Notes: a model not told the origin generated them from the sequence alone. A DNA stretch of 64,000 bases from an uncultured Candidatus Saccharibacteria bacterium (GCA_964510945.1 CAZEED010000001.1:164577-228576), one strand, 5' to 3'; positions 2,737 through 62,113 are shown, counted from the first letter of the stretch. Translations and numbers: made by a program.

Positions 2737-3024
2737 ATGGCCGAAACACTCGTTGTCGCAAGCTCTGATGAAGTATTATCGGAAGCTGCAGCAATTTCTT
2801 ACGGAGATGCTGATATATGTGACTACAGCTGGTATTTTTCACTTGAGTTGAGGGATCGGGCTAGATGGTGGAATGACATGGAAAGTATTGGAATATTTCC
2901 TTACTCAGAATTTATTGAAATGACAACAGAGTGGTTCCATGATGATGATAACTCAGCTCGAGCCAAGATACTAATTGATGTGACTACCATGATGCTAGAC
3001 GCAGCACTTGAATCACAGGAATAA
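2737..3024 (+). CDS. hypothetical small acidic protein inserted between rplK and rplA
   Basis: ATG lies 1 nt after the rplK stop. 95 aa, rich in D/E/W, with 1 Lys and 4 Arg by my count. No recognisable motif. Confidence 0.55.
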   Translation: MAETLVVASSDEVLSEAAAISYGDADICDYSWYFSLELRDRARWWNDMESIGIFPYSEFIEMTTEWFHDDDNSARAKILIDVTTMMLDAALESQE

Positions 3025-4183: not shown

Positions 4184-4897
4184 TTGTCTGTATATAGCAA
4201 CACACAAATAAGACAAGCAATCAACTATGGCCATATTGTTTGCACGCCTTTTAATCCAAAACACGTTGCGCATGCTAGCCTCGACGTAACCTTAGGCTAC
4301 TACTACTATCGAACAGAAAGAGCCGGTGACCACACTATCTACAACCCTTTCGACGAAGCCGATGTTTCTAGATATTTTGAGGGCGCCCACAAAGCTGTAC
4401 CACATAAAAAATGGTGTGACGACAATGGAGTAAAACTTCTCAAAGGAGTGCCCGCTGATCATCCAGTAATCCCACTAAAACCGGGAGAGAGAATTCTAGC
4501 CCATACTCATGAATTTTTTGGCATAAAACCACCGGGAGCGTATGAGCTAAAATCACGATCAAGCTGGGGCCGTAATGGCATAGCTGTATGTTTTGATGCA
4601 GGCTGGGTTGACCCTGGTTACATTAATCGCTTAACTCTAGAGATTTTTAATCTCAACCACAAAGAAATCGTACTATTGCCTGTAGGCGAACGTATCGGGC
4701 AAGCAGTATTTCATGACACGGGGCAGGTTGAAGGAAACTATGGAGAGGGTCGAGAAAACGGCTTTAGTGGAAAGTACCAAAGTGGTACAGATCTAGATAC
4801 CCTAATAAAAACCTGGAAGCCAGAAATGATGCTACCAAAAGCGTATAAAGACAAACGATCGTTGCCAGTAAAGATTAAAGGATTAAAAAGTGACTGA
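4184..4897 (+). CDS. dcd: dCTP deaminase family protein (dUTPase fold)
   Basis: TTG start after GAGGGG. N-terminus IRQAINYGHIVCTPFNPKHVAHASLDVTLG resembles the dCTP deaminase N-terminus. 237 aa is longer than typical. Adjacent to tmk/thyX. Confidence 0.7.
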   Translation: MSVYSNTQIRQAINYGHIVCTPFNPKHVAHASLDVTLGYYYYRTERAGDHTIYNPFDEADVSRYFEGAHKAVPHKKWCDDNGVKLLKGVPADHPVIPLKPGERILAHTHEFFGIKPPGAYELKSRSSWGRNGIAVCFDAGWVDPGYINRLTLEIFNLNHKEIVLLPVGERIGQAVFHDTGQVEGNYGEGRENGFSGKYQSGTDLDTLIKTWKPEMMLPKAYKDKRSLPVKIKGLKSD

Positions 4898-7232
4898 CGA
4901 CCCACAAAAATTCGGTGGGAAAGAATCTACTAATTTAGCTAAAGGCATTTTTATCGTTATCGAGGGCACAGACGGCTCTGGGAAAGGGACTCAATTCAAG
5001 CTACTATCGGATCGATTACAGAAAATGGGCTACCAGATTGAAACTTTTGATTTTCCGCAATACGAAAACGATTCAAGCTATTTTGTAAAACAATACCTAA
5101 ACGGAAAATACGGAACATCCGATGAAGTGGGCCCATACACTGGATCAATGTTTTACGCACTAGACCGGTTTGAGGCTGGACCAAAAATTAAGCAGGCTTT
5201 GAACGAAGGAAAAATCGTTATAGCGAATAGGTTCACTGGCTCAAACATGGCTCATCAAGGAACAAAATTCACGAACTCTGAAGAACGAAAGGGGTATTTT
5301 TTATGGCTAGATAATCTTGAATTTATGACACTAAAAATACCTAGACCAGATATTAGTATAGTTCTAAGAATGCCGGCCGAAATCGCTCAAAATCTTGTAG
5401 ACAAAAAAGAAGCTAGGAGCTATACAGATAAGAAACGAGATATCCTCGAAGCAGACTTAAATCACCTTAAAAGATCTGTTGAAGTATATGATGATTTATG
5501 TGAAATATTCCCGAAAGATTTTACTCGTATTGACTGCGTTAGAAATGATCAACTACTAAGTATAGAAGAGGTACAAAAGTTGCTGTGGGAAAAAATAACT
5601 CCGAGATTACCAGTAATTAACGTTACAGAGCTGACCTCCGAAAACGAAAACTATGTCGTGAAAAACGAAAACGGCTCGTTCTCTATAACTAGCGCCGGAA
5701 AAGAATTTTTAAGCGGTGCAATTACAAATACAGATGATAATGTCTATGCATTCACTGGCGAAAATCTTACGCCAATAACCGCTGCTGCAGCAATGGCCAG
5801 ACTGAGCCGTCGTGGGGACGATATGCGCGTGACAATACTAGACGAGTTCGCAAAAAATCTTGGCAAGGATGAAGGCCTGCTAAAACGAGTTATTACTGCG
5901 TATGGTGATGATTCTGTCCAACAACTTGTCGGCCAACACTTGGTAGTAGAAGAAGCGTCCAATCTACTGACTAAAAAACTTGAGTGGGGAAGATTGGCTT
6001 CATATCTAGAACAATCAACACGTTACATTTATTTTGATCAAAAGGATAAAAACGGTCGATACAAGTATTTCACTCCGCCAGAGCTAGACGAGTTAACAAA
6101 ACAAGTTTATGAACAAAAAATGGACAAGCTATTTGATAACTATTCAAAACTTGCTAGCGAACTAACAGACTATGTACGAAATAAATCTACTGTTGCCGAG
6201 TCAGAACGCGATATCGCTTGGAAGGGCGCAACCCGTGCTCAAGCTTGCGATGCAATTAGAGCAGTCCTGCCAGTAGCAACAAAATCAACTGTCGGGATTT
6301 ATGCGTCCGGTCAAGCACTAGAGAGTTTAATTATGCACCTTCAAAGCGACGAATTAGCAGAAGCTAGAACTACTGGTGGCAAAATCCTAGCAGAGTCTAG
6401 AAAGGTTTTGCCAGCATTTTTAGAACGTGCCGACAAGCCCGAAAGAGGCGGAGCAAACATAGCCTACAAAGCCAACACAGCAAGAAAAGTGAAAGATTTA
6501 GCTCTAAACTATCTCCCTAACAATAACGTGGGTGCTAATGAAGACGTGGTTCTTACAGATTATTGGCCAAAAAACGAGTTCGATCTAGTTGCCGACATGC
6601 TATATGACCACAGTTCGTTATCGCTTGATGACATACGTAAGGAAGTCTCAAGCTGGCCATTTGAGCGTAAACAAGAGGTTTTTGATGCTTATGTGGGTGA
6701 AAGGCTAAATAGACGTCATAAACCCGGCAGAGCCCTAGAAAAGGCACATTACAGCTGGGATCTTGTGTGTGATTACGGAATCTTTCGCGATTTACAGCGT
6801 CATCGCATTGTCGATGACCTAGAATGGCAACTATTAACACCAAGATATGGTTATGAGATTCCAGAACTCGTAGAAAAGGCCGGGTTAAGTGATCTATTTG
6901 AACAGTGTTTTGATATGAGCCTAACGTTATATAGCGACATGCAACAGGCGGGATATGCACTCGAGGCTCAGTATGCAACGCTACTTGGCCATAAAATGCG
7001 CTGGAAAGTCACGTACAACGCTAGAGAAGCCTTTCATTTGCACGAACTCCGTACTGCTCCTCAGGGCCACCCAGGATATCGCAAACTTGTTAAACAAATG
7101 CACGATAGACTGTGCGAAGTGCATCCATCTATTGGCGCAGCCATGAAATTCGTCAACAAAGACGAAGATCCCGAGCTAACAAGACTTGCAGCTGAAAAAT
7201 ACACTCAGTTCAAACTAAAAGGTCTTCAGTAG
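4890..7232 (+). CDS. tmk-thyX: fusion protein: N-terminal thymidylate kinase plus a C-terminal large ThyX-like (FAD-dependent thymidylate synthase) region
   Basis: P-loop IEGTDGSGKGTQ and ANRFTGSNMAHQG (Tmk). C-terminal FRDLQRHRIVD...PRYG and FHLHELRTAPQGHPGYR resemble the ThyX RHR signature region. A single uninterrupted 780-aa ORF. Confidence 0.75.
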   Translation: MTDDPQKFGGKESTNLAKGIFIVIEGTDGSGKGTQFKLLSDRLQKMGYQIETFDFPQYENDSSYFVKQYLNGKYGTSDEVGPYTGSMFYALDRFEAGPKIKQALNEGKIVIANRFTGSNMAHQGTKFTNSEERKGYFLWLDNLEFMTLKIPRPDISIVLRMPAEIAQNLVDKKEARSYTDKKRDILEADLNHLKRSVEVYDDLCEIFPKDFTRIDCVRNDQLLSIEEVQKLLWEKITPRLPVINVTELTSENENYVVKNENGSFSITSAGKEFLSGAITNTDDNVYAFTGENLTPITAAAAMARLSRRGDDMRVTILDEFAKNLGKDEGLLKRVITAYGDDSVQQLVGQHLVVEEASNLLTKKLEWGRLASYLEQSTRYIYFDQKDKNGRYKYFTPPELDELTKQVYEQKMDKLFDNYSKLASELTDYVRNKSTVAESERDIAWKGATRAQACDAIRAVLPVATKSTVGIYASGQALESLIMHLQSDELAEARTTGGKILAESRKVLPAFLERADKPERGGANIAYKANTARKVKDLALNYLPNNNVGANEDVVLTDYWPKNEFDLVADMLYDHSSLSLDDIRKEVSSWPFERKQEVFDAYVGERLNRRHKPGRALEKAHYSWDLVCDYGIFRDLQRHRIVDDLEWQLLTPRYGYEIPELVEKAGLSDLFEQCFDMSLTLYSDMQQAGYALEAQYATLLGHKMRWKVTYNAREAFHLHELRTAPQGHPGYRKLVKQMHDRLCEVHPSIGAAMKFVNKDEDPELTRLAAEKYTQFKLKGLQ

Positions 7233-7542
7233 GCATTTTATAGGTAACTTCTAAAAGCATATGCTCATCATCAAAAACTCGCGAAACATCTAAGACAACC
7301 TCCCCAATCGCTAAAACACGATCCGGATTTTCTACGCAAGGCGTAATATCAGCCTCGTATTGAAACACTTCATGGGCGATAGCGTGTATCGGGTCGTGAC
7401 CAACAGCAAAATACCCCAGGATTGGCCTGCTCGGCTCATAGCCATCTGCTATCCGACCAAGATTGTCGACAACTTTTTTTCCCATTCTTGCTCCAAGAGT
7501 CTCAACTGAATCGCTCGGGCTAGGTAATCTAATTAGTGACAT
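7210..7542 (-). CDS. hypothetical acidic protein
   Basis: The start at MSLIRLPSP (ATG 7542) is preferred because GAGGA lies just upstream and a terminator hairpin occupies the longer N-terminal extension in the ORF track. The 3' end overlaps the thyX stop convergently by 23 nt. Confidence 0.5.
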   Translation of the reverse strand: MSLIRLPSPSDSVETLGARMGKKVVDNLGRIADGYEPSRPILGYFAVGHDPIHAIAHEVFQYEADITPCVENPDRVLAIGEVVLDVSRVFDDEHMLLEVTYKMPTEDLLV

Positions 7543-7554
7543 AATATCCTCATT

Positions 7555-7579
7555 AAAAAAGCCTCCGTTTCGCGGAGGC
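7555..7579 (-). terminator. hairpin plus T-tract immediately upstream of the 7542 start (attenuator-like)
   Basis: Minus strand reads GCCTCCG-CGAAA-CGGAGGC followed by TTTTTT. An upstream GGAGGCC (7613-7619) can pair with the 5' arm as an alternative structure. Confidence 0.5.
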
Positions 7580-7732
7580 CAGTCTTTCGTTCTTTGTTGC
7601 GTTATCGCAATCGGCCTCCACACATATCGCCACAAATGATCACTCGATTTGTGAGCATTGTTTTATGGCTATATTTGGCTCGTTGTATTAGTTTATTCAT
7701 ACCGCAATTAAAATTACTCCTATAAAAAGGGG

Positions 7733-7760
7733 TTGTCAAGAATATTTTTTATGCTAAATT
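7733..7760 (+). promoter_or_regulatory. putative sigma70-type promoter for the leuA-like leader
   Basis: TTGTCA (7733-7738), 16-nt spacer, TAAATT (7755-7760). The same hexamer region read on the minus strand is TTGACA, suggesting divergent promoters. Confidence 0.35.
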
Positions 7761-7769
7761 ATATATCTA

Positions 7770-7847
7770 ATGATAACTAAATCGTTGAAGCAACAAATTC
7801 TACTGCTAGGCCTACAAGGGTTGTGCTTCAACATGGTTGAAGCCTAA
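7770..7847 (+). CDS. candidate Leu-rich leader peptide (25 aa: MITKSLKQQILLLGLQGLCFNMVEA)
   Basis: ATG 7770, TAA 7845-7847. Codons CTA CTG CTA GGC CTA at 7800-7814. The stop abuts the antiterminator arm. No SD; the start lies about 10 nt after the putative -10 box. Confidence 0.45.
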   Translation: MITKSLKQQILLLGLQGLCFNMVEA

Positions 7848-7881
7848 GCGTATATTTCGCTTCTAGCACAACCGACATCAA

Positions 7882-7906
7882 ACGGCTTCAACGAAGCCGT
7901 TTTTTT
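7882..7906 (+). terminator. attenuator terminator upstream of the leuA-like gene
   Basis: ACGGCTTC-AAC-GAAGCCGT followed by a T-run, ending 6 nt before the AAGGAG RBS of the 7925 ORF. GTTGAAGCC (7836-7844) is complementary to GGCTTCAAC (7884-7892), which would act as an antiterminator. Confidence 0.6.
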
Positions 7907-7924
7907 AAATTTAAGGAGAAAATA

Positions 7925-9208
7925 ATGAGTATTGAACAAGTAGAAGTACATATTTTTGACACAACTTTACGTGATGGGGCCCAATCCTTGCCTGAAGACC
8001 ATCAATTTCCCGTAGGATCGAAGACGGAAATTGCCGATAAAATTGCAAGTTTAGGTGTAAACATAATCGAAGCAGGTTTTCCAGTTACGCCAGGCGATGC
8101 GGATGAAGTAGAAGAGGTAGCTAGAACAATTGGTAATAAAGCCTATTCTGTCTCAAGATGGGAACAAGCAGAGTTATCAGGTGAAGTTAAGCAACCACCT
8201 GTTATTGCCGGTCTATCTCGTACAACCCAAGGCGATATCGAAGCAACGTGGGCGGCAATCCAATACGCTTCTCGCCCACGAATACATACTTTTGTCTCGA
8301 CAGATCCTGAGCATATGGCCGCAAAGTTTCCAGGAAAGTCTCAGGCCCAAGTAGTAAATATGGGAAGGGATGCTATCCGTATGGCGCGAAATTTTGCAGA
8401 CGAGCATCCCGGAGCTTCAGTAGAATTTTCCGCGGAAGCTGCTAGTACAACAGATACCGTATATTTAGAAGAAGTAATTAGAACGGCAGTGTCAGAAGGT
8501 GCCGATATAATCAATCTTCCGGATACCGTAGGTCAAAGAAATCCATTTTGGATGAAAGATTTTTACTCTAAAGCTATAGAGTGGATTCACTCAGAAAATC
8601 CTGACGTAGTAATCTCCGCGCACAACCATAATGATTTAGGGATGGCTGCCGCGAATAGCTATGCTTTATTGTTAGCCGCCGGAGATGCTGCACAAAAATC
8701 ACAGTCCAGAGTCAATATCCAAATTGAAGGGACAATTTGTGGCTTAGGCGAACGTGCAGGCAATGCAGACATCTTCACTGTAATGGGAGAGTTCTATAAG
8801 TTTGTTGGTGATTTGGCAGTCCCAGTAACATGGAGCTTTAATCCAGAAAAATCCGTCCAAATAGCTAATGATGTTATGGATTACGCCAGATTCAGTGTTG
8901 ATCGACAGAATCCTATTGTTGGCCAAGATACAATGGTACATCGTTCTGGAATTCACAGTGACGGTGTAATTAAGGGTGGTCATCAGATATATACCCCACA
9001 TGACCCTACTTTCTGGGGCCATAGTGAACAAGCCGTCCACGAAGAAGGACGATATCAAGGCAAAGCAGGCCGTGCAGCCGTAAATGAATCAATTTCACAG
9101 ATTGGAGCTTCCGACTTAAGGGAAGTAATAGATGGGACTTTGAACCCAGACGAACACGATTACGACGGATTCGAAAATGAATTAAGAGCCGCTGGTGTCA
9201 CTATTTGA
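7925..9208 (+). CDS. leuA: 2-isopropylmalate synthase-like protein (HMGL-like catalytic domain, no C-terminal regulatory domain)
   Basis: FDTTLRDGAQS, IHTFVSTDPEHM, HNHNDLGMAAANS and GLGERAGNA. 427 aa, shorter than typical LeuA. Confidence 0.75.
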   Translation: MSIEQVEVHIFDTTLRDGAQSLPEDHQFPVGSKTEIADKIASLGVNIIEAGFPVTPGDADEVEEVARTIGNKAYSVSRWEQAELSGEVKQPPVIAGLSRTTQGDIEATWAAIQYASRPRIHTFVSTDPEHMAAKFPGKSQAQVVNMGRDAIRMARNFADEHPGASVEFSAEAASTTDTVYLEEVIRTAVSEGADIINLPDTVGQRNPFWMKDFYSKAIEWIHSENPDVVISAHNHNDLGMAAANSYALLLAAGDAAQKSQSRVNIQIEGTICGLGERAGNADIFTVMGEFYKFVGDLAVPVTWSFNPEKSVQIANDVMDYARFSVDRQNPIVGQDTMVHRSGIHSDGVIKGGHQIYTPHDPTFWGHSEQAVHEEGRYQGKAGRAAVNESISQIGASDLREVIDGTLNPDEHDYDGFENELRAAGVTI

Positions 9209-9313
9209 CATTAATCGACACAGAAATTATGATTGTTGATATGTATATTGCAATTATTCAAATTATTGGAGGAACCGTAAGCGCGGAGTAGTGTTAATAT
9301 CGTCAAAAAAACA

Positions 9314-9337
9314 AACCCCGCGCCAAGCGGGGTTTTT
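9314..9337 (+). terminator. intrinsic terminator (A-tract upstream, possibly bidirectional)
   Basis: AACCCCGC-GCCAA-GCGGGGTT followed by TTTTT. Confidence 0.7.
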
Positions 9338-9351
9338 AAGATAGGAAAAGT

Positions 9352-9951
9352 ATGTTAATATCTGCAGAATCATTAATAATTGGACCTCACGATCCCTGGG
9401 ACTCGCTCGATCCGACAACTAAACGCGGCTTAGCACTAGTAGATGCCGACCCACTAATTGCTGAATATACAGACAGATGGCCAACGTTAATGGCAAAAGT
9501 TGTGTCCTTGCGAGGCGTTGTTGAAGTACCTAATGAAGAATTGCCAATCGTATATGCTGCAAAATTAACTGTTTCACGCTCAATACTCTCTGCCGACAAC
9601 GACGAACGAACTGAGGAAGCACGATTTTGGCTGGAAAACTCTGGATTTTTAGTCCCGTTTGCTGATGACTTTTCTTTAATTGATGTTTATAGAATCGAGA
9701 GAGCAATCAAAGAAAGCCCCTTTATGGGGATTGCATATGAATATTTACCCCTCAGAGACAATCTGCCGAGAAAACAGCCAGAGAGTAACGATCAAATCGT
9801 CCAAATACGACAGTCCTTATATCAAGTTACAAATCCCGTGAAACCCAAAGAAGATTTCGCGCCAAAACCAAAAAACCGCTCTTCTAGCATGAATAGACGC
9901 TCTGTCCCTGCCTACACGACCGATGTAAGTCCAAACGTTAATTATCTATAA
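9352..9951 (+). CDS. hypothetical protein
   Basis: 199-aa ORF with a weak RBS (AGGAAAAG). Acidic N-terminal two thirds and a basic tail. No motif recognised. Confidence 0.5.
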   Translation: MLISAESLIIGPHDPWDSLDPTTKRGLALVDADPLIAEYTDRWPTLMAKVVSLRGVVEVPNEELPIVYAAKLTVSRSILSADNDERTEEARFWLENSGFLVPFADDFSLIDVYRIERAIKESPFMGIAYEYLPLRDNLPRKQPESNDQIVQIRQSLYQVTNPVKPKEDFAPKPKNRSSSMNRRSVPAYTTDVSPNVNYL

Positions 9952-9953
9952 CA

Positions 9954-9983
9954 TTTGACAGTAGCATCTCACTCTGTTAAGAT
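9954..9983 (+). promoter_or_regulatory. putative promoter of the rplJL operon
   Basis: TTGACA (9954-9959), 18-nt spacer, TAAGAT (9978-9983). Confidence 0.45.
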
Positions 9984-9995
9984 ACATTAGTTAAT

Positions 9996-10105
9996 TACCA
10001 AAGACAGCGATGGTCGTATGCGACTTAATAATATCGCCGAGGCAAAAACATCAACTTTTTGTATCGTACGTTTTTAAAAGTCTTTGGTAGCCCAAGGGCT
10101 TTTTT
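9996..10105 (+). promoter_or_regulatory. candidate L10-leader-like autoregulatory 5' UTR
   Basis: Long-range pairing of TACCAAAGAC (9996-10005) with GTCTTTGGTA (10080-10089) encloses an internal region. A short GC hairpin and T-run follow, directly upstream of rplJ. Confidence 0.4.
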
Positions 10106-10152
10106 AGTCCTCGCACATTTATAAGTAACAAAATAATAAAAGAAAGGAAGAT

Positions 10153-53110: not shown

Positions 53111-53542
53111 CTATCGCCGAGTTTTTCGGCGACGTTTTAATTCGGCGACGCGTAGGCGTACTTGGCTACGATCTATTAGATTCTGGGCGGTGTCTAGTGA
53201 TAACTGATCTTTAGCCTCCGCACGAAGTTTTCGGGCGTGTTCTATAGCTTTCTCGGCCTCGGCAGTGTTGATCTCGTCAGCATGGTCAGCCTCATCCGCT
53301 AACACTCTTACTTCGTTATTTAACACCTCAATAACTCCACCATTTGTAGCATAGTGTTCCATCATATCGTCAGGCTCGTTAGATTTGCGCCTAACACTAA
53401 TAACCCCTGGGCTAGCGATGCTAACCAGCGGCATATGGTCTTTAAAGACCGCGATTATGCCGTCCGGGGTAGGCAAGAGTACTTCGTAGGCCTCGTCAGC
53501 ATACTTAATGCCATCAAGCGTAACTAGCTGAAATGTTATCAT
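53111..53542 (-). CDS. atpC: F1 ATP synthase subunit epsilon
   Basis: 143 aa at the last position of the atp operon. N-terminal beta-sandwich-like sequence and a C-terminal helical region. Confidence 0.85.
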   Translation of the reverse strand: MITFQLVTLDGIKYADEAYEVLLPTPDGIIAVFKDHMPLVSIASPGVISVRRKSNEPDDMMEHYATNGGVIEVLNNEVRVLADEADHADEINTAEAEKAIEHARKLRAEAKDQLSLDTAQNLIDRSQVRLRVAELKRRRKTRR

Positions 53543-53588: not shown

Positions 53589-55007
<1,419 letters not shown>

Positions 55008-55028: not shown

Positions 55029-55397
55029 CTAATAATCTATATCTCTTACGCGCTCTGGTAATCCTCTCTCTCTGTCATCTACCGTCTCTATTTTGGCAGC
55101 ATCGGACTCAAGTGATCTAGAATCCCACAGCGCCTCTAATGTCTCGCGGACACCGGATTCCTCCTCAATTTGTCTCAGGGCAGTATTAAACCCAACAGGG
55201 TCGATGGTACCCAATATACCCATTTGTCGCAATGCAAGAATGGTAAATGTTGCTCCGATTTCTCCGGCACGTTCTCCAAGCGTATACGCTTCAGTGAAAA
55301 GGACACCCTCTGCCTCTAATACGTGGGCTGTTTTAAAGCCAGCCTCTTGAGCAATGCCTTCATCATGCGGTAACCGTTCTGGGAAATCTATGCTCAT
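55029..55397 (-). CDS. hypothetical acidic protein between atpG and atpD
   Basis: Its ATG overlaps the atpG TGA (ATGA). 122 aa with 2 Lys and 10 Arg by my count. A 21-nt spacer with AAGGAG follows, before atpD. Confidence 0.65.
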   Translation of the reverse strand: MSIDFPERLPHDEGIAQEAGFKTAHVLEAEGVLFTEAYTLGERAGEIGATFTILALRQMGILGTIDPVGFNTALRQIEEESGVRETLEALWDSRSLESDAAKIETVDDRERGLPERVRDIDY

Positions 55398-56263
55398 TTT
55401 ATGGCCTCCGCTCCACCGGTTATTTCTGCTAATTCTTGGGTGATTCCGGCTTGGCGTGCAGTGTTAAATGCCAGAGTCAGATCATCTACTAAGTCGTTGG
55501 CATTATCTGTAGCATTTTTCATGGCCATCATACGCATAGAGTGTTCACTAGCTTGGGATTCTAAGAATGCCTGGCTCAGTTGCGCCTCCACGAGTCGTAC
55601 CGTGATGTTATCAAGCACGGCCTTTGGCGACGGCTCAAACTCTGCTAAATCCATATCGCTACTAATCGGCGTATCGGAGTAGGCAACAGGTAATAAACGA
55701 TCGTATTTTACTTCTTGAACAATACTAGATTTAAAGTCAGTGTAGAGGATATCGGCAAGATCAATGTTTTTATTTATATACTTTTCGGTAATCATGTTAA
55801 GAATCGGTCGAATGTCGTTAGCGGTTGGGCTCTCGGGGAAGTCACGGTATACAGCGCTAACCTCGACATCACTAAATCTAGAGATAAATCTGGCAGCTTG
55901 TTTACCGATAACAATAACTTCGCTTTTTACTTTTTGTTCTTTATCTACTTGTAGCTCTTTAGCAAGTTGTCGTAGCACATTGCTATTGTATGCGCCAGCT
56001 AGGCCTCGATCGCTAGTAATGGCAATATGAAGACGAGTCTTTACAATGCGACGAATTTTGTAAAGCGGATGATTATCTACATCTGTTAATTGACGCAAAC
56101 GACCGAGAATCTCGTTAGCAAGGTTTCTAAAATCACGGGATTTTGCGGCGGTATCCTGAGCTTTACGCATTTTGCTGGCCGCCACTAACTCCATAGCCTT
56201 GGTAATTTGCTTGGTGTTAGATACACTAGTAATCCGTCGTTTTAACTGCTGTGTACTAGCCAT
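55394..56263 (-). CDS. atpG: F1 ATP synthase subunit gamma
   Basis: 289 aa with N-terminal QQLKRRITSVSNTKQITKAMELVAASKMRKAQ and C-terminal ITQELAEITGGAEA. Confidence 0.95.
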   Translation of the reverse strand: MASTQQLKRRITSVSNTKQITKAMELVAASKMRKAQDTAAKSRDFRNLANEILGRLRQLTDVDNHPLYKIRRIVKTRLHIAITSDRGLAGAYNSNVLRQLAKELQVDKEQKVKSEVIVIGKQAARFISRFSDVEVSAVYRDFPESPTANDIRPILNMITEKYINKNIDLADILYTDFKSSIVQEVKYDRLLPVAYSDTPISSDMDLAEFEPSPKAVLDNITVRLVEAQLSQAFLESQASEHSMRMMAMKNATDNANDLVDDLTLAFNTARQAGITQELAEITGGAEAIK

Positions 56264-56638
56264 TTATAGCTCCTCGCGCCACTCTGGGCGGCCAACGTCA
56301 TCTAATCCAACACTAGTTGATAAGCCATCTAAAGGCTGAGAATCGCTAAAGACCATAGAAAACTCGCGCATAGCACTTCTAACTCTATCTAAAGTTCCGT
56401 CGGGTAAATCTTGGCCTTTATTAGCAATACTAACTGCAGTTTCGAGCGATAGATCTTCACCACTTGGACGTGTAATACTAAAACCAAGAGAGAAATGAAA
56501 TTGTATTTCGACTCGTGGATCGGCCCCAAGTAAACTAATTACTTTACCGTGGTCAGTAGCACCGTATCGTTGAAGATGATCGTTCAAACACAGATCTCTG
56601 TCGTAAATAAGTTCTCCCTCAGGTCCAAGAATCGTCAT
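56264..56638 (-). CDS. hypothetical acidic protein (third of three between atpA and atpG)
   Basis: Its stop TAA directly abuts the atpG ATG. 124 aa with 2 Lys and 9 Arg. Confidence 0.65.
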   Translation of the reverse strand: MTILGPEGELIYDRDLCLNDHLQRYGATDHGKVISLLGADPRVEIQFHFSLGFSITRPSGEDLSLETAVSIANKGQDLPDGTLDRVRSAMREFSMVFSDSQPLDGLSTSVGLDDVGRPEWREEL

Positions 56639-56640
56639 TT

Positions 56641-57006
56641 CTACCCCTGTACTCCGGCTGTTTTCATATTGTACATAACCGAGCTTCGCCTGTCAGCCTC
56701 TTGCGGTGTAGATACATGCATATGATCAAACACAAATCTTACCCCAGCCTCAAAACCATATCGTTCTTGGAAAGAAATATAAGTTGTTAGCCTATCGACT
56801 TCTACAGAATCCTCAATACCCATGCGACCTAACATTACCCCCACACCTTCTCTAAGCTTATCGAAAGTATCTTCAATATCCGGTTTCCGGGACTCTACCA
56901 ACTGACTAGCACCTATAGGAACGTCATCGACTGGGCCACCTTCGCCAAAAAACTTTTTATAGTATTCTTCGTACAGCCCTGTAGGTATACTTTCTGATAC
57001 TGGCAT
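56641..57006 (-). CDS. hypothetical acidic protein (second of three between atpA and atpG)
   Basis: The next ATG follows 2 nt after its stop. 121 aa with 5 Lys and 8 Arg. Confidence 0.65.
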   Translation of the reverse strand: MPVSESIPTGLYEEYYKKFFGEGGPVDDVPIGASQLVESRKPDIEDTFDKLREGVGVMLGRMGIEDSVEVDRLTTYISFQERYGFEAGVRFVFDHMHVSTPQEADRRSSVMYNMKTAGVQG

Positions 57007-57008
57007 AA

Positions 57009-57341
57009 TTACTTCGTCTCCCTTACATAGCTACTTAACCGTGACATGCTTGGATCTGGAGCTTCATTAACTACTTCAGCAAATAATCTTGTAATGTCTA
57101 CGCCAGAGTCTGCTGCTGCACAAGATAAGGACCTTATGGCCGCCAAAACTCCAGCATCAAAAGCTCTATCTAGTGTACGACTAACAACATCGCTTCGAAT
57201 ACATGCCTGTCCCGGAAATTCAGCAGAAAGTATCGGGTCAACAAGTGGAGGCATAGTGTCAACGATTTGCGTTAAAGTATCGTCTCTTTGCGACAGATCA
57301 GGCCCTTCTAGTAATTGTGGAAATTCTGGTTTTTCTGGCAT
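57009..57341 (-). CDS. hypothetical acidic protein (first of three between atpA and atpG)
   Basis: Starts 33 nt after the atpA stop with a GGGAG-type RBS. 110 aa with 2 Lys and 8 Arg. Confidence 0.65.
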   Translation of the reverse strand: MPEKPEFPQLLEGPDLSQRDDTLTQIVDTMPPLVDPILSAEFPGQACIRSDVVSRTLDRAFDAGVLAAIRSLSCAAADSGVDITRLFAEVVNEAPDPSMSRLSSYVRETK

Positions 57342-57374
57342 AACTATCTCTTTTCTCCCACACCTTTACTTACC

Positions 57375-58904
57375 TTAAGATTCATTATACTCCTTGGCAA
57401 TTTCGTTAGCTGTATCTACGATTATCTTCTGGATTTTTTCATCTGGTTTGTCACCTTTATCAAGAGCTGTCATTTCTTTTTTGTACTGCGAGTGCAGGGC
57501 AGAGAGTAGGGCATCTTTGGCTTTTTTGATGTTATCAATCGACACACTATCAAAGGCGCCTTCGTTAGCCGACATTAGTAGGGCAGTCTGTTGCCAAACG
57601 GACAAAGGAGAATACTGAGGTTGTTTTAGCAGTTCTGTTAGACGTTGCCCACGTTCAATACGCTGTTTTGTCTCTTCGTCTAGATCTGTAGAGAATTGGC
57701 TAAAGGCCGCAAGCTCACGAAATTGCGCTAGGGACAGTCGCAAGTTACCTGCGACGCTTTTAACTGCTTTAGTCTGCGCAGAACCACCCACACGCGATAC
57801 CGACAAACCAACCGAGATGGCTGGTCTGATACCTTGATAGAACAAATTTGTCTCCATGAATATTTGTCCATCGGTAATCGAAATAACGTTAGTAGGGATA
57901 TAGGCACTAATATCGCCAGCCTGAGTCTCGATAATTGGAAGGGCAGTTAGCGAACCTCCACCTAATTTATCACTAAGTTTCGCGGAGCGTTCTAGTAGAC
58001 GAGAGTGAAGATAAAACACATCTCCTGGGTAAGCCTCTCGTCCCGGTGGACGACGGAGTAATAGCGACATTTGACGATAAGCCACCGCATGCTTGGACAG
58101 ATCATCGTAGATAATCAAGGCGTGTTGAGCGTTATCGCGGAAGTATTCTCCCATTGCTGTGCCAGAATATGGTGCCAGATATTGCATACTAGCTGGGTCG
58201 GAGGCAGAAGTCGCAATAATTATTGATTGATCCATGACACCTTCACGCTTCAAGCGTTCAGCAAGTCGGGCAACTTTGCTAAGCTTTTGACCGACGGCTA
58301 CATAAATATTGATAACACCTGTGCCTTGTTTATGCTGGTTGATCATTGTATCAATTGCGATGGCTGTTTTTCCCGTCTGTCTATCGCCGATGATGAGTTC
58401 TCGCTGACCGCGTCCGATAGGGACCATGGCATCAACTGACATCAGACCTGTCATAAGTGGCTCGTGGACACTTTTTCGATCCAAAACTCCCGGTGCAGAG
58501 CGCTCAACCGGACTAGTATTCTTCGTTTTTATCGGGCCTTTATTATCTAACGGCCTACCAAGAGGGTCGACAATACGTCCGATTAATTCTGGGCCTACGG
58601 GTACTTCTAGAACTTTCCCCGACAGTCTTACTTTTGCCCCAGCTTTAACTTCAACGTCCTCGCCAAGTAGTACTAGACCAATCTCATCCTCCATAAGGTT
58701 CAAGGCAAAAGCAGGGATAGCACCATTTAATCCATCAATCTCAACCATTTCCGCAAATCCACACTTGTACAGGCCATAGACCCAAGCAATGCCATCACCA
58801 ACCCTCGTTACTACCCCCACATTTTCGACTTCGGGCGTATTTTTTAACGCCTCAATTGCTTCTCTAATATCAGAAGATAGTTCTTTAACAGATAAATCTT
58901 TCAC
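57375..58904 (-). CDS. atpA: F1 ATP synthase subunit alpha
   Basis: Walker [12 protein letters not shown], with YDDLSKHA and [13 protein letters not shown]. Confidence 0.98.
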
Positions 58905-59287
58905 TATACATTTACTCCTTCTCGTAACTTATTTAGTCGGTTGCGTACGGTTAGATCCAGCAATTTTGCGCTAGTCTCCACCCGAACACCACCGACGACT
59001 GATTCGTCTACAATATTGTTAGTAACATACGAATCCGTGTCTATTAATTTCATAATTTTATCGACTGTTGATTGGTCAAGTTTTTGCGCACTAGTTAAGT
59101 TAACTTCAACAACGCCAGTTTTATCTTCTCTTATTGCGCCAATTTCTCTAACAATCGCATCAAGCTCGTTAGAGCGGTGATTTTCGATTAAATAGGCCGC
59201 GAGTAAAGTTGCCGACTGCTTAGTTGAGTGTTTTTTCGTGAGCTCTAATGTTGCCTGAGCAATTTGCTTTTTTGTCGGTTTACTCAT
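58904..59287 (-). CDS. atpH: F1 ATP synthase subunit delta (OSCP), short form
   Basis: C-terminal [25 protein letters not shown] matches the delta C-terminal domain. It is only 127 aa, against about 175-180 aa in typical bacterial delta. Confidence 0.8.
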
Positions 59288-59289
59288 TT

Positions 59290-59655
59290 TTACTCAAACC
59301 CCAATCGATTATCAATTAGTCGGCTATGTACTAAGGAGCCTAACCACCCGGCAGTAGCGTCTCTTAAAGCATCATTAGGAGTAGCATCTGTAGACTCAAT
59401 GAGACCATCTAGCCATTCAATATAACCACGTCGCACTCGTCCCCTTAGAGTGTTGAGACCATCATATGGAAAATCATATGCTGCACCCCTAACTCCTAGA
59501 TTATCTTCGTGGAGGAATCCATAGCTCCCAGTTTCCGCTCCTTGGTTAGCAGATGGGGCATAGTTCTCCCCAGCCATTAGCTCTAGTGCAAGATAAAACC
59601 CCTCGCTAGAAACTAACGAAAGTATCGGCTCTACAGGCCTGCGATACAACGTCAT
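59290..59655 (-). CDS. hypothetical protein between atpF and atpH
   Basis: Its ATG overlaps the atpF TGA (ATGA), and the atpH ATG follows 2 nt after its stop. 121 aa with 0 Lys and 10 Arg. Confidence 0.65.
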   Translation of the reverse strand: MTLYRRPVEPILSLVSSEGFYLALELMAGENYAPSANQGAETGSYGFLHEDNLGVRGAAYDFPYDGLNTLRGRVRRGYIEWLDGLIESTDATPNDALRDATAGWLGSLVHSRLIDNRLGFE

Positions 59656-60194
59656 GATAATTCTTTCATAGTTTTACCTAGGAGTTCAGCATCTGCCTTG
59701 GAATCTAGTTTTGTCTTAATTATCGCTTCGGTTGCTTCGGCAACAAGACCACGCATTTCTTTCTCTAAACCTAGCCTAGCCTTATCAATATCTTCTTCGA
59801 TTTTTACATGCGCATCAGCTAGCATTATGTCCGTTTTACGATTTGCGGCATCTTCAGCTGCCTTAATTACCGATCCTGCCTCTTCGTGTGAATCTGCAAT
59901 AATTTTATCTGACTCAAGTCGGGCTTGTTTCAATGTATTCTGGACTTTTTCGTCCAAACGTTCTTTCTCGGCTTCCATCTCTCGTCCCAAGCGAATACCA
60001 TCTTCGATTGTTTTTCGTCTAGATTCTAGAGTGGCGACAATTTTAGTTAATGCAAATTTCTTAATAATAAAGAACAAAAGGAGGAAAGTGGCCGCCTGAG
60101 CCAAAATAGCTAAAGGATCTATTCCCAGTGCACCAATACCCGACACTTCTTCGGTGTTTGCGAATATTGTTGTAACTGAACTAATATCTACCAC
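59652..60194 (-). CDS. atpF: Fo ATP synthase subunit b
   Basis: One N-terminal TM helix (LAQAATFLLLFFIIKKF) and a long charged helix. Confidence 0.9.
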   Translation of the reverse strand: MVDISSVTTIFANTEEVSGIGALGIDPLAILAQAATFLLLFFIIKKFALTKIVATLESRRKTIEDGIRLGREMEAEKERLDEKVQNTLKQARLESDKIIADSHEEAGSVIKAAEDAANRKTDIMLADAHVKIEEDIDKARLGLEKEMRGLVAEATEAIIKTKLDSKADAELLGKTMKELS

Positions 60195-60220: not shown

Positions 60221-60469
60221 TTATGCAAGTAAGAATGCACCAAGCAAGAATGCAAGTAGCGCAGTAACTTCGATCATCGCCGCAATAATGACGATTTGAC
60301 CAGCAGCCTTACCAGCTTCTGGATTGCGTCCAAGCGCCTTCATGTAGTTTGCACCAAGCCAACCTAGTGAAAAGGCTGCCGCACCTAGGGCGATGCCAAG
60401 CATCAGGCCTTTAGCCATAATGTCATTGCTGGCTGCTTCGGCTGCAAATGTTGTTAATTGTGGAACCAT
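60221..60469 (-). CDS. atpE: Fo ATP synthase subunit c
   Basis: 82-aa hairpin with the loop GRNPEA and the carboxylate in AAMIEVTAL. Confidence 0.93.
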   Translation of the reverse strand: MVPQLTTFAAEAASNDIMAKGLMLGIALGAAAFSLGWLGANYMKALGRNPEAGKAAGQIVIIAAMIEVTALLAFLLGAFLLA

Positions 60470-60513: not shown

Positions 60514-61365
60514 CTAATGCGCTCCTTCGACCTGTTTAGAGGCATCAATTTTATCATGATCTGATTCAGTGCCGTGTTCATCGGCGTGGGATATCGCAAG
60601 TCCCAGATACGTTGCTGATAATACTGTAAATACGTAGGCCTGTATACCCGCAACTAACACTTCGAATAAAATTATTGGTAGTGCTGCCAGCGGTGTACGT
60701 CCTTTTGATAAAACAAGCGAAGTAAACACAGCAATCAAAATCTCACCAACAGCAGTGTTTAAAAACAACCTAAGGCTCAAGCTCAATATCCTCGTAAGCT
60801 CACCAAAAACTTCAAGTATTCCAATAAAAAAATTGATAGGATTCCAGGGCTTATTTGTAAAGTAATGCTGTAGATGTTTTTTACCGCCTTGTTCTTTTAT
60901 CGACAGCACTTGAACTAGCAAAATTGCTGATACGGCCATGGCGATTGTAGCGTTTAGATCAGCCGTAAATGGTCGTAGAAGAGGCGTCGCAACACCTTGA
61001 TAACTGACTTCAACAGATGGTCCAACAACCGGTAATAACCCCAAGGTATTATTCACGATAATAAAAATAAAAAAGCTCCCAAATATAGGAGCAAATTTTA
61101 TGGCGCGTTCTCTATTACCAAAAACGCCTTCCAGCATAGAAATAATAAAGTCCATAATCATTTCGACAAATTGCGATAAGCCTTTTTTAGGCTCAATTTT
61201 TATCTTTTTTGCCGCCCAGACTAAAAGCGTAATGATAAATATTGAGGATAGCAATCCGTAAAGCATTGAGTTAGTAACAGTTAAAGGGCCGAGTTTAGCT
61301 ATTGGTTCGGCCTTTAAACTTACATGTATGTCACTAGACGCAAAACGAACTAACGAACCTAACAT
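60514..61365 (-). CDS. atpB: Fo ATP synthase subunit a
   Basis: Polytopic, with the conserved Arg in LSLSLRLFLN. Confidence 0.93.
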   Translation of the reverse strand: MLGSLVRFASSDIHVSLKAEPIAKLGPLTVTNSMLYGLLSSIFIITLLVWAAKKIKIEPKKGLSQFVEMIMDFIISMLEGVFGNRERAIKFAPIFGSFFIFIIVNNTLGLLPVVGPSVEVSYQGVATPLLRPFTADLNATIAMAVSAILLVQVLSIKEQGGKKHLQHYFTNKPWNPINFFIGILEVFGELTRILSLSLRLFLNTAVGEILIAVFTSLVLSKGRTPLAALPIILFEVLVAGIQAYVFTVLSATYLGLAISHADEHGTESDHDKIDASKQVEGAH

Positions 61366-61489: not shown

Positions 61490-61987
61490 TTATAATTCTT
61501 CGGGCTGCATTGCGTTGCAAAATTCTTCTACTGATTGCTCAACTGCTGCTAAGTAGCCTAGGGCCAGTCTTTCATCGAGGCCATTGTGAACTAAGTCAGG
61601 AGAGTAGGACTCCGTAATAGGACCTAACTCTGGCTTAACGCCAGGTAAATGACCAAATCCGGCAGGGAAGTCACCAAAGGTCCAAGTAGCCCTCAAATAT
61701 GGCCCGACAGGGTGGCTAGTTATCTGCAAATATGCGGCAGGTGCACTCTCATCTGCAGGGCTTACTTCGATAGTTTCTGTTGAACTTTCTTGATTTACAT
61801 TGCGGTGTGAACCCTTATTGTCGGGGTTGTAAGGTTCTTTTAAGTACGGCTTAATTCTATCATTTAAGGCCTCCCAGCGCTCTTGGGGTGTTAACTGGCT
61901 CTCAGTTTCGGCCAAGTCTACAGGATTACGCAGACTTATAGCTTCGGCTTCTAAATCTCTGATTTTTTTAATTCTTTCAAGTTCCAT
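61490..61987 (-). CDS. hypothetical acidic protein upstream of atpB
   Basis: The start at MELERIKK is preferred (AGGA upstream). Soluble, with no TM segment, so unlike AtpI. Confidence 0.5.
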   Translation of the reverse strand: MELERIKKIRDLEAEAISLRNPVDLAETESQLTPQERWEALNDRIKPYLKEPYNPDNKGSHRNVNQESSTETIEVSPADESAPAAYLQITSHPVGPYLRATWTFGDFPAGFGHLPGVKPELGPITESYSPDLVHNGLDERLALGYLAAVEQSVEEFCNAMQPEEL

Positions 61988-62113
61988 GAAAAGCATCCTA
62001 TACAAATACATATTTCAGTGCAAGCATAACCACTATCATATAATGCGACTTTACAATGTATAGTCACTTTGATATTATGTTTTTGCTTAACTAATTAGAA
62101 AGAGAGGCCGATA

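Follow-up and report, generated by a model that had tools for sequence, protein, structure and literature searches.

The stretch of DNA analyzed here, hereafter the window, comprises 64,000 nucleotides and originates from a member of Candidatus Saccharibacteria (TM7, Patescibacteria), as placed by its ATP synthase gamma subunit, with the best genome matches being 91–92% identical. It carries an atp operon on the minus strand, in which atpB (60514–61365), atpE (60221–60469), atpF (59652–60194), atpH (58904–59287), atpD (53589–55007), and atpC (53111–53542) were assigned from the list of open reading frames (ORFs) and from identical products. On the same strand, the gene of the F1 alpha subunit, atpA (57375–58904, 509 aa; PF00006 and PF00306 on an identical product), and that of the F1 gamma subunit, atpG (55394–56263, 289 aa; ORF list), form the upstream and the downstream anchor of a site which harbors additional genes. 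The interval between both amounts to 1,111 nt and is occupied by X2 (57009–57341, 110 aa, pI 4.3), X3 (56641–57006, 121 aa, pI 4.7), and X4 (56264–56638, 124 aa, pI 4.5), all of them orphan ORFs of the minus strand taken from the ORF list. They represent the cassette families F1, F3, and F0, respectively; these labels are always preceded by the word family in order to distinguish them from the F1 part of the ATP synthase. A spacer of 33 nt (57342–57374, minus strand) separates atpA from X2 and features a Shine-Dalgarno (SD) motif of the GGGAG type, as seen in the sequence and in a comparison of the junctions of six architectures.

An earlier sequence-only reading of this locus had already described three ORFs of 110, 121, and 124 aa between atpA and atpG, and the ORF list agrees with it and places them on the minus strand. 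The junctions which it reported are likewise present in the sequence: the TAA of X2 is followed by tt and the ATG of X3, the TAG of X3 by aa and the ATG of X4, and the TAA of X4 directly abuts the ATG of atpG. Furthermore, X2, X3, and X4 do lie in three different frames, each with its own ATG. X4 and atpG are in the same frame.

That reading had missed two more ORFs of this type, which likewise belong to the atp operon of the window. X1 (59290–59655, minus strand; ORF list) is an acidic, Lys-free orphan ORF of 121 aa at the atpF/atpH junction. X5 (55029–55397, minus strand; ORF list) is an acidic orphan ORF of 122 aa at the atpG/atpD junction and overlaps the stop of atpG by 4 nt. In addition, an acidic orphan ORF of 95 aa is located at the rplK/rplA junction of the window (2737–3024, plus strand), where it features a junction of TAA, 1 nt, and ATG; this ORF is present on 23 contigs.

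Coding Capacity and Selection

X2, X3, and X4 are genuine, separate, and mutually unrelated protein-coding genes. At least 23 contigs, derived from diverse samples and several assemblers, encode the exact X3 protein, and all of them also carry X2, X4, and atp genes. A codon model trained on the conserved genes of the window identified the called frame as the best of six frames for every X ORF. Diverged copies from relatives, evaluated according to Nei-Gojobori, revealed dN/dS values of 0.16–0.25 for the X2 family, 0.10 for X3, 0.17–0.38 for the X4 family, and 0.27 for X1, the latter compared with an 83% identical copy in L011. Across all five cassette families and many pairs, dN/dS ranged from 0.10 to 0.38, which likewise holds true for X1 and family F5, whereas the flanking genes atpA and atpG showed values of 0.01–0.05. 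The X proteins are thus under purifying selection, yet evolve about 5–10 times faster than the flanking atp genes. X3 was even found to be invariant across about 100 residues at a dS of 0.6. It is the combination of the repeated recovery from independent contigs, the low dN/dS values, and a host-like codon usage in the called frame which identifies X2–X4 as genuine genes. Paralogy among the cassettes was detected neither by blastp nor by jackhmmer or hhalign, with all hhalign probabilities being below 6%.

Protein Composition and Homology

X1–X5 are soluble, acidic proteins with pI values of 4.3–4.7, and no hydrophobic segment sufficient for a membrane span or a signal peptide was found in any of them. 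X2–X4 feature masses of 12–14 kDa and are cytoplasmic and Lys-poor. The Lys/Arg counts given in the sequence-only reading proved to be exact (2/8 in X2, 5/8 in X3, and 2/9 in X4), and the acidic character it had noted corresponds to net charges of −8, −8, and −11, respectively. Pooled, X1–X5 contain 11 Lys and 45 Arg residues compared to a K/(K+R) of 0.655 in the host (p = 2e-12). The GC3 of the cassettes (0.325) is at or below that of the host (0.375), and their GC excess is confined to the codon positions 1 and 2. Consequently, the preference for Arg over Lys opposes the mutational bias. The Lys-poor composition looks like the outcome of selection acting on the proteins. A recent origin from a high-GC (actinobacterial) source was considered and rejected on account of the same GC3 values and the restriction of the GC excess to the first two codon positions.

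Searches with X1–X5 in Pfam, NCBIfam, PADLOC, and PHROGs yielded nothing above noise, and X2, X3, and X4 had no sequence match in the PDB. The only relatives of X2 are proteins of 62–89% identity at the same alpha/gamma site, with one other representative of a 50%-identity cluster (82% identical) emerging among the 1.84 billion searched. For X3, just one other cluster with 87% identity emerged among 5.8 billion proteins, and a profile search with X4 revealed only four clusters with identities of 64–73%. No relative of X2, X3, or X4 was found on the viral contigs of IMG/VR. In JGI metagenomes, a scan with the X4 profile gave no match, and the relatives retrieved with atpG were all distant, with identities of at most 75%. 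Moreover, a six-frame search of about 170 other Saccharibacteria loci detected no remnants of X2–X5, and the full-text literature provided no description of the X ORFs or of variable cassettes inside atp operons of Saccharibacteria. As far as sequence comparison can tell, X2–X4 are new protein families.

Junctions and Expression Signals

The cassettes are closely packed. In all six architectures, every junction consists of a stop codon, 0–2 nt, and an ATG, and the spacer sequence with the GGGAG-type SD motif is retained upstream of whichever cassette stands first. Each upstream ORF also contains an SD-like motif in its 3′ end. In the wider survey of the clade described below, 108 of 124 gap ORFs terminated between −8 and +20 nt from the start of the downstream atp gene, the median distance being −4. 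Promoter-like motifs across the cassette region were as frequent as in shuffled sequence (27 vs. 26.9), terminator-like motifs were slightly above the shuffled level (16 vs. 10.7 ± 3.3), and Rfam revealed no RNA elements in the region. Owing to the spacing of 0–2 nt, the SD-like motifs, and promoter and terminator motifs close to the shuffled level, X2–X4 are very likely co-expressed with the F1 genes.

Variability of the Cassette Site Within the Genus

Comparison of relatives revealed that, in this genus, the alpha/gamma site is occupied by subsets drawn from five unrelated families, which form six architectures. Their order is constant, namely family F1 (X2), family F3 (X3), family F4 (106/107 aa, N106), family F0 (X4), and family F2 (132/133 aa, N132). 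The window features families F1, F3, and F0; L091 possesses families F3, F4, F0, and F2, and L092 families F3, F4, and F0. Families F1, F0, and F2 are found in L093–L098, families F1, F4, and F0 in L099, and families F1 and F2 in L100. Strains with alpha and gamma subunits of 94–98% identity thereby differ in their cassette subsets. In L011 and L012, the gamma subunits of which are 91–92% identical to that of the window, a single unrelated ORF of 107 aa is located at the alpha/gamma site, and different ORFs are also present at the gamma/beta and beta/epsilon junctions. In L091, an unrelated ORF stands in place of X5, which is missing in L092.

Among the relatives' loci compared, the exact trio of X2, X3, and X4 was found nowhere outside the species of the window. 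The sequence-only reading had considered that the cassette might occur in this assembly alone and lack conservation, which applies only in part: the species carries the trio as a fixed set, while its members are confined to the genus. Of the cassette families, only family F4 has homologs at the same junction in the distant lineage L131/L132, with about 35–36% identity, and as they are still recognizable there, some of the cassette families must be old.

Distribution of Inserts in Saccharibacteria

For a clade-wide survey, the atp operon was annotated in about 170 Saccharibacteria loci and gaps of at least 150 nt were counted, with denominators varying by junction. Such gaps were present at the alpha/gamma junction in 52 of 151 loci, at gamma/beta in 71 of 126, and at beta/epsilon in 52 of 114, and occurred at b/delta in 3 of 63 and at delta/alpha in 1 of 95 loci. 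Hence, the alpha/gamma, gamma/beta, and beta/epsilon junctions are insertion hot spots. The alpha/gamma insert of the window is the largest one of the survey, followed by one of 711 nt; the four-cassette insert of L091, found via protein look-up and therefore outside the survey, is longer with about 1.5 kb. Inserts are commoner near the lineage of the window and rarer in the most distant lineages, and the tight operon is therefore likely the ancestral state.

The ORFs within the gaps are encoded on the same strand, and 236 of them group into 152 jackhmmer families, including 109 singletons. Matches in Pfam were obtained for 4 of 130 scanned gap ORFs, three of them to PF05635 and one to a Crp regulator. 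As a class, the gap ORFs feature a median net charge of −6.7 per 100 residues and a K/(K+R) of 0.33, compared to about 0.5 in atp genes. Since a like acidic orphan resides at the rplK/rplA junction, the phenomenon is not specific to the ATP synthase.

Members of PF05635 (23S rRNA intervening-sequence protein) occupy the same atp junctions in other Saccharibacteria, i.e., beta/epsilon in L016 and L049 and alpha/gamma in L122 and L061, which illustrates that small ORFs of widespread families can land at atp junctions. However, in contrast to the acidic X2–X4, the proteins of PF05635 form basic four-helix bundles. Affiliation with this family was rejected for X1–X5, none of which matched it.

Traces of Recombination

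The locus shows a mosaic of divergence levels, as dS between L091 and L092 amounts to 0.013 for family F3, 0.13 for family F4, 0.42 for family F0, and 1.03 for atpG. X1 is missing from the contigs L001, L007, and L010 despite identical X2–X4, and the haplotypes with and without X1 each feature a distinct 3′ end of atpF, one haplotype recurring in one sister species and the other in another. At the cassette boundaries, neither attC-like nor terminal inverted or direct repeats were detected, nor were target-site duplications, and Pfam revealed no recombinase or integrase among the called genes of the 10 kb on either side. Microhomologies at the junctions reach only 7–8 nt, e.g., TTATGCCA, and short motifs such as TTATGCC(A/T) are common to the junctions. 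Saccharibacteria are naturally competent and recombined incoming DNA with arms of about 1 kb (PMC10633639), which makes a route via homologous recombination plausible. The most economical mechanism for the exchange of cassettes would be an allelic replacement via the conserved atp genes.

Interpretation of the Cassettes

The explanation toward which we lean is that X2–X4 are accessory orphan cassettes, translationally coupled and variable between strains, which ride along in the operon and are swapped by recombination, rather than being subunits of the enzyme. Having no promoter of their own, they would probably be transcribed along with the atp operon. Their translation might proceed by coupling to the neighbors, enabled by the stop/start spacing of 0–2 nt and an SD motif embedded in the end of the upstream gene; the arrangement of the sequence argues for both co-transcription and coupling. 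Homologous recombination with the conserved atp genes as arms may add, remove, or swap whole cassettes between strains, possibly supplemented by an occasional microhomology-mediated deletion or insertion. Selection would then retain only those variants with clean, coupled, and non-polar junctions. The cassettes would accordingly be hitch-hikers of the operon with a strain-specific role, most plausibly in the interaction with hosts, competitors, or mobile elements, and their function is presumably unrelated to the ATP synthase. The concentration of inserts at the F1 junctions, with b/delta and delta/alpha being nearly empty, would be expected from a link to F1, but not from a pure hitch-hiker model.

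A more far-reaching and somewhat unlikely version would regard the cassettes as part of an undescribed hypervariable accessory proteome, in which promoterless coupled cassettes reside in highly expressed housekeeping operons (the F1 genes and rplK-rplA) and are swapped by natural transformation. Selection for acidic, Lys-poor proteins would hint at products acting outside the producer. Such products could be effectors in or on the actinobacterial host which avoid lysine-directed tagging, or neutralizers of basic toxins. If this holds true, the operon itself would provide the promoter and the recombination arms for a cassette system that dispenses with integrase and attC.

Alternatively, the cassettes might encode lineage-specific factors which regulate or inhibit F1 or aid its assembly and which evolve fast, e.g., by an arms race, and the placement at F1 junctions would ensure their synthesis together with alpha, gamma, and beta. 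The concentration of inserts at three F1 junctions and their near absence elsewhere in the operon, the tight coupled junctions, and the small, soluble, acidic nature of the proteins are in accordance with this. Known regulators of the ATP synthase (the C-terminal domain of epsilon, zeta, IF1, and AtpTheta) as well as AtpI and AtpZ are likewise small, partly encoded within atp operons or beside them, and synthesized along with the enzyme. Nevertheless, these are conserved across the lineages having them, whereas X2–X4 vary between near-identical strains and lack a Pfam match. The repertoires differ among strains with gamma and alpha subunits of 94–98% identity, unrelated families hold the same site in sister species, and the 236 ORFs disperse into 152 families. 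In addition, no match was obtained in Pfam, including its families of ATP synthase subunits and regulators, and a like ORF is inserted in the rplK-rplA operon. A regulatory role at F1 is therefore unlikely. Membership in the known subunits or regulators was rejected, given the lack of Pfam and NCBIfam matches and a presence which is not conserved with the enzyme, as evident from the six subsets and from insert-free species.

These findings also bear on the proposal of the sequence-only reading that the placement between the alpha and gamma genes would favor stoichiometric co-production with F1. Its first part is sustained, as the junctions of 0–2 nt and the SD-like motifs make co-expression very likely. 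The stoichiometric partnership is not: cassette subsets differ among strains with gamma subunits of 94–98% identity, species with a gamma identity of 91–92% carry an unrelated ORF at the alpha/gamma site, deep-branching Saccharibacteria mostly possess a tight, insert-free operon, and the same window holds a like acidic orphan ORF at rplK/rplA. Because of the varying subsets, the replacement in sister species, and the rplK/rplA equivalent, a structural stoichiometric role in F1 is unlikely.

A further idea sees the cassettes as orphan neutralizers of the immunity, antitoxin, or DNA-mimic type, or as delivered effectors, with small acidic proteins that would bind basic toxins or nucleases originating from hosts, rivals, or phages. 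Acidic, strain-variable, and fast-evolving traits are common in immunity and anti-restriction proteins. Arrays of immunity genes of polymorphic toxins and anti-restriction DNA mimics are likewise small, acidic, unrelated, fast-evolving, and strain-variable. The cassettes match this with a pI of 4.3–4.7, a scarcity of Lys which opposes the mutational bias, strain-variable arrays of unrelated families, and a fast yet constrained evolution. In composition and variability, the cassettes would be compatible with a role as immunity-like or DNA-mimic-like proteins or as effectors. Still, neither Pfam, including its immunity families, nor PADLOC or PHROGs provided a match. The called flanking genes, which are atp and housekeeping genes, comprise no recognizable toxin or secretion gene, signal peptides and transmembrane segments were not found, and a housekeeping operon is an unusual location for such arrays. 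We thus consider this specific role improbable. An assignment to polymorphic-toxin immunity or to a known defense protein was dismissed on the basis of the missing Pfam and PADLOC matches and of the atp and housekeeping neighbors.

It is highly unlikely that the cassettes are functionless filler, in which selection would act on an open, coupled frame that avoids polarity on the atp genes and not on the protein itself. Such a view would account for the near-universal coupling of the junctions, the missing homologs and domains, the high turnover, and the low confidence of AlphaFold2 models, which reached a pLDDT of 43.8 for the X4 family (5 sequences) and of 39.9 for X3 (2 sequences). However, the dN/dS of 0.10–0.38 in five families as well as X1 and family F5 is far from the value of about 1 expected in this case. 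The invariance of X3 over about 100 residues at a dS of 0.6, an amino acid bias opposing the mutational pressure, and the recognizability of family F4 at about 35–36% identity at the same site of a distant lineage contradict it as well. Finally, although three adjoining unannotated ORFs in different frames could suggest a single broken-up gene (a pseudogene) or an artifact of assembly, this is hardly conceivable and was refuted, as every ORF occurs independently of the other two in relatives, possesses its own ATG and SD motif, and is under purifying selection with a dN/dS below 0.4, the same arrangement is found in at least 23 contigs from varied samples and assemblers, and the concatenated X2, X3, and X4 matched no family models, including those of ATP synthase subunits and regulators, and restored no known domain, so that the sequence-only reading was right in arguing against a single frameshifted gene.

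Comparison With Known Systems

With the accessory cassette explanation, the arrangement resembles flexible genomic islets, phage morons, and integron arrays; distinguishing features are the lack of own promoters and recombination sites, the location in a housekeeping operon, and the presumably coupled translation. Phage morons and flexible islets likewise consist of extra, unrelated, strain-variable genes between conserved syntenic genes. They are also dispensable for the flanking machinery and exchanged via recombination in the flanks, as is proposed here. Unlike the cassettes, morons typically possess their own promoter and terminator, whereas the cassettes feature neither, are coupled at 0–2 nt, and are located inside a housekeeping operon. 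A phage or plasmid gene, i.e., a moron in the strict sense, was rejected, since there was no PHROG match, no IMG/VR relative, and no surplus of promoter-like sites over the shuffled level, with terminator-like sites only slightly above it.

In integrons, attC is an imperfect inverted repeat of about 60–140 nt after each cassette, and IntI and attI adjoin the array. Integron arrays are similar to the present site in being tandem, small, promoterless, unrelated ORFs with many orphans, an upstream promoter, and strain-variable content. They differ in that the cassettes described here lack attC, are 0–2 nt apart, have no flanking repeats, and keep a fixed order of families. An integron or transposon was dismissed, as neither attC, terminal inverted repeats, nor target-site duplications were found, the junctions leave no room for them, and there is no integrase within 10 kb.

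Relevance of the Locus

The main interest of the site is a tractable view of orphan-gene turnover in Patescibacteria. It represents a defined locus with orphan genes under selection and with quick turnover, at which a comparison from strain to strain is possible, and it bears on the retention and expression of new genes in ultra-small, promoter-poor genomes. If the cassettes are functional strain-specific factors, they would open a compact route into the large "dark" part of the proteomes of Patescibacteria. Besides, the locus calls for caution when deriving functions from operon context, as a position in the atp operon alone does not make a protein an ATP synthase subunit.

The operons tolerate inserts of 0.3–1.6 kb at alpha/gamma, of about 1.2 kb at gamma/beta, and, in L024, a multi-gene insert of 3.8 kb at beta/epsilon. 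This natural tolerance in conjunction with coupled translation suggests expression sites for the engineering of transformable Saccharibacteria (PMC10633639). A relaxed constraint on the exact dosage of subunits could be the reason why the operon tolerates passengers. Tn-seq showed that a cultured relative can do without its ATP synthase (PMC10633639). For this reason, it is not a safe argument that the cassettes are protected by an essential operon. The atp genes in the lineage of the window are nonetheless under strong purifying selection.

Turnover of ORFs within and around the atp operon

The junction between atpF and atpH is occupied by X1 (59290-59655, minus strand), an acidic ORF of 121 aa without a single lysine. 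X1 is missing in some contigs (L001, L007 and L010) whose X2, X3 and X4, the three small acidic orphan ORFs between atpA and atpG, are identical to those of the window. The presence and the absence allele each feature a distinct 3' end of atpF, and each is common to a different sister species (L011 versus L012). Likewise variable is X5 (55029-55397, minus strand), a 122-aa orphan ORF between atpG and atpD, which is very acidic (net charge -14) and overlaps the atpG stop by 4 nt. At this junction, an unrelated ORF takes its place in locus L091, and X5 is missing in L092.

Downstream of atpC, the segment 51196-53029 (minus strand) encodes D267, an acidic orphan of 267 aa, as well as a protein of 333 aa that matches the cadmium-carbonic-anhydrase repeat (PF18484) weakly, slightly below threshold. 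The near-identical strains L002 and L004 have other genes in place of these two; in L011, the 333-aa protein is conserved. Upstream of atpB, a 173-aa acidic ORF without a family match (61490-62011, minus strand) has counterparts of 62-65% identity in both L011 and L012, likewise upstream of atpB, and is thus stabler than the cassettes, i.e., the small orphan ORFs at junctions inside the operon.

Cassettes in other Saccharibacteria

Homologues of F4, one of the cassette families at the atpA/atpG junction in the genus, occur at the same junction in a distant lineage (L131, 5681-6001; L132, 2302-2622) with 36% identity; the gamma subunit of this lineage is just 53% identical. Accordingly, at least one cassette family is either old or was transferred between distant Saccharibacteria. 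A further family, delineated by jackhmmer and including matches to PF05635 (23S rRNA intervening-sequence protein), uses different atp junctions in different genomes, namely atpD/atpC in L016 (3963-4337) and L049 (3617-4009) and atpA/atpG in L122 (491-886) and L061 (1315-1524).

In one genome, an insertion of 3.8 kb with several ORFs separates atpD from atpC (L024, 9335-13095), which may be the site of the only Crp-type regulator among the 130 ORFs from gaps between atp genes that were scanned against Pfam. This set left out L078, a complete-chromosome MAG in which atpA is apparently split into fragments (5444-6820), probably by a frameshift or an assembly error.

Acidic ORFs among ribosomal protein genes

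The phenomenon is not specific to ATP synthase, since an acidic orphan ORF of 95 aa (2737-3024, plus strand; pI 4.05) lies between rplK and rplA with a junction of TAA, 1 nt and ATG. The identical protein, for which no Pfam match was obtained, is present on 23 contigs. The interval of approximately 6 kb from rplA to the L10 leader and rplJ (4184-9951) comprises a dCTP-deaminase-like gene and a 780-aa fusion of thymidylate kinase and ThyX, together with an acidic ORF on the minus strand (7210-7635) and two acidic, lysine-poor ORFs, the first of 427 aa with a net charge of -30 (7925-9208) and the second at 9352-9951. The L10 leader itself was placed by Rfam at 9980-10115.
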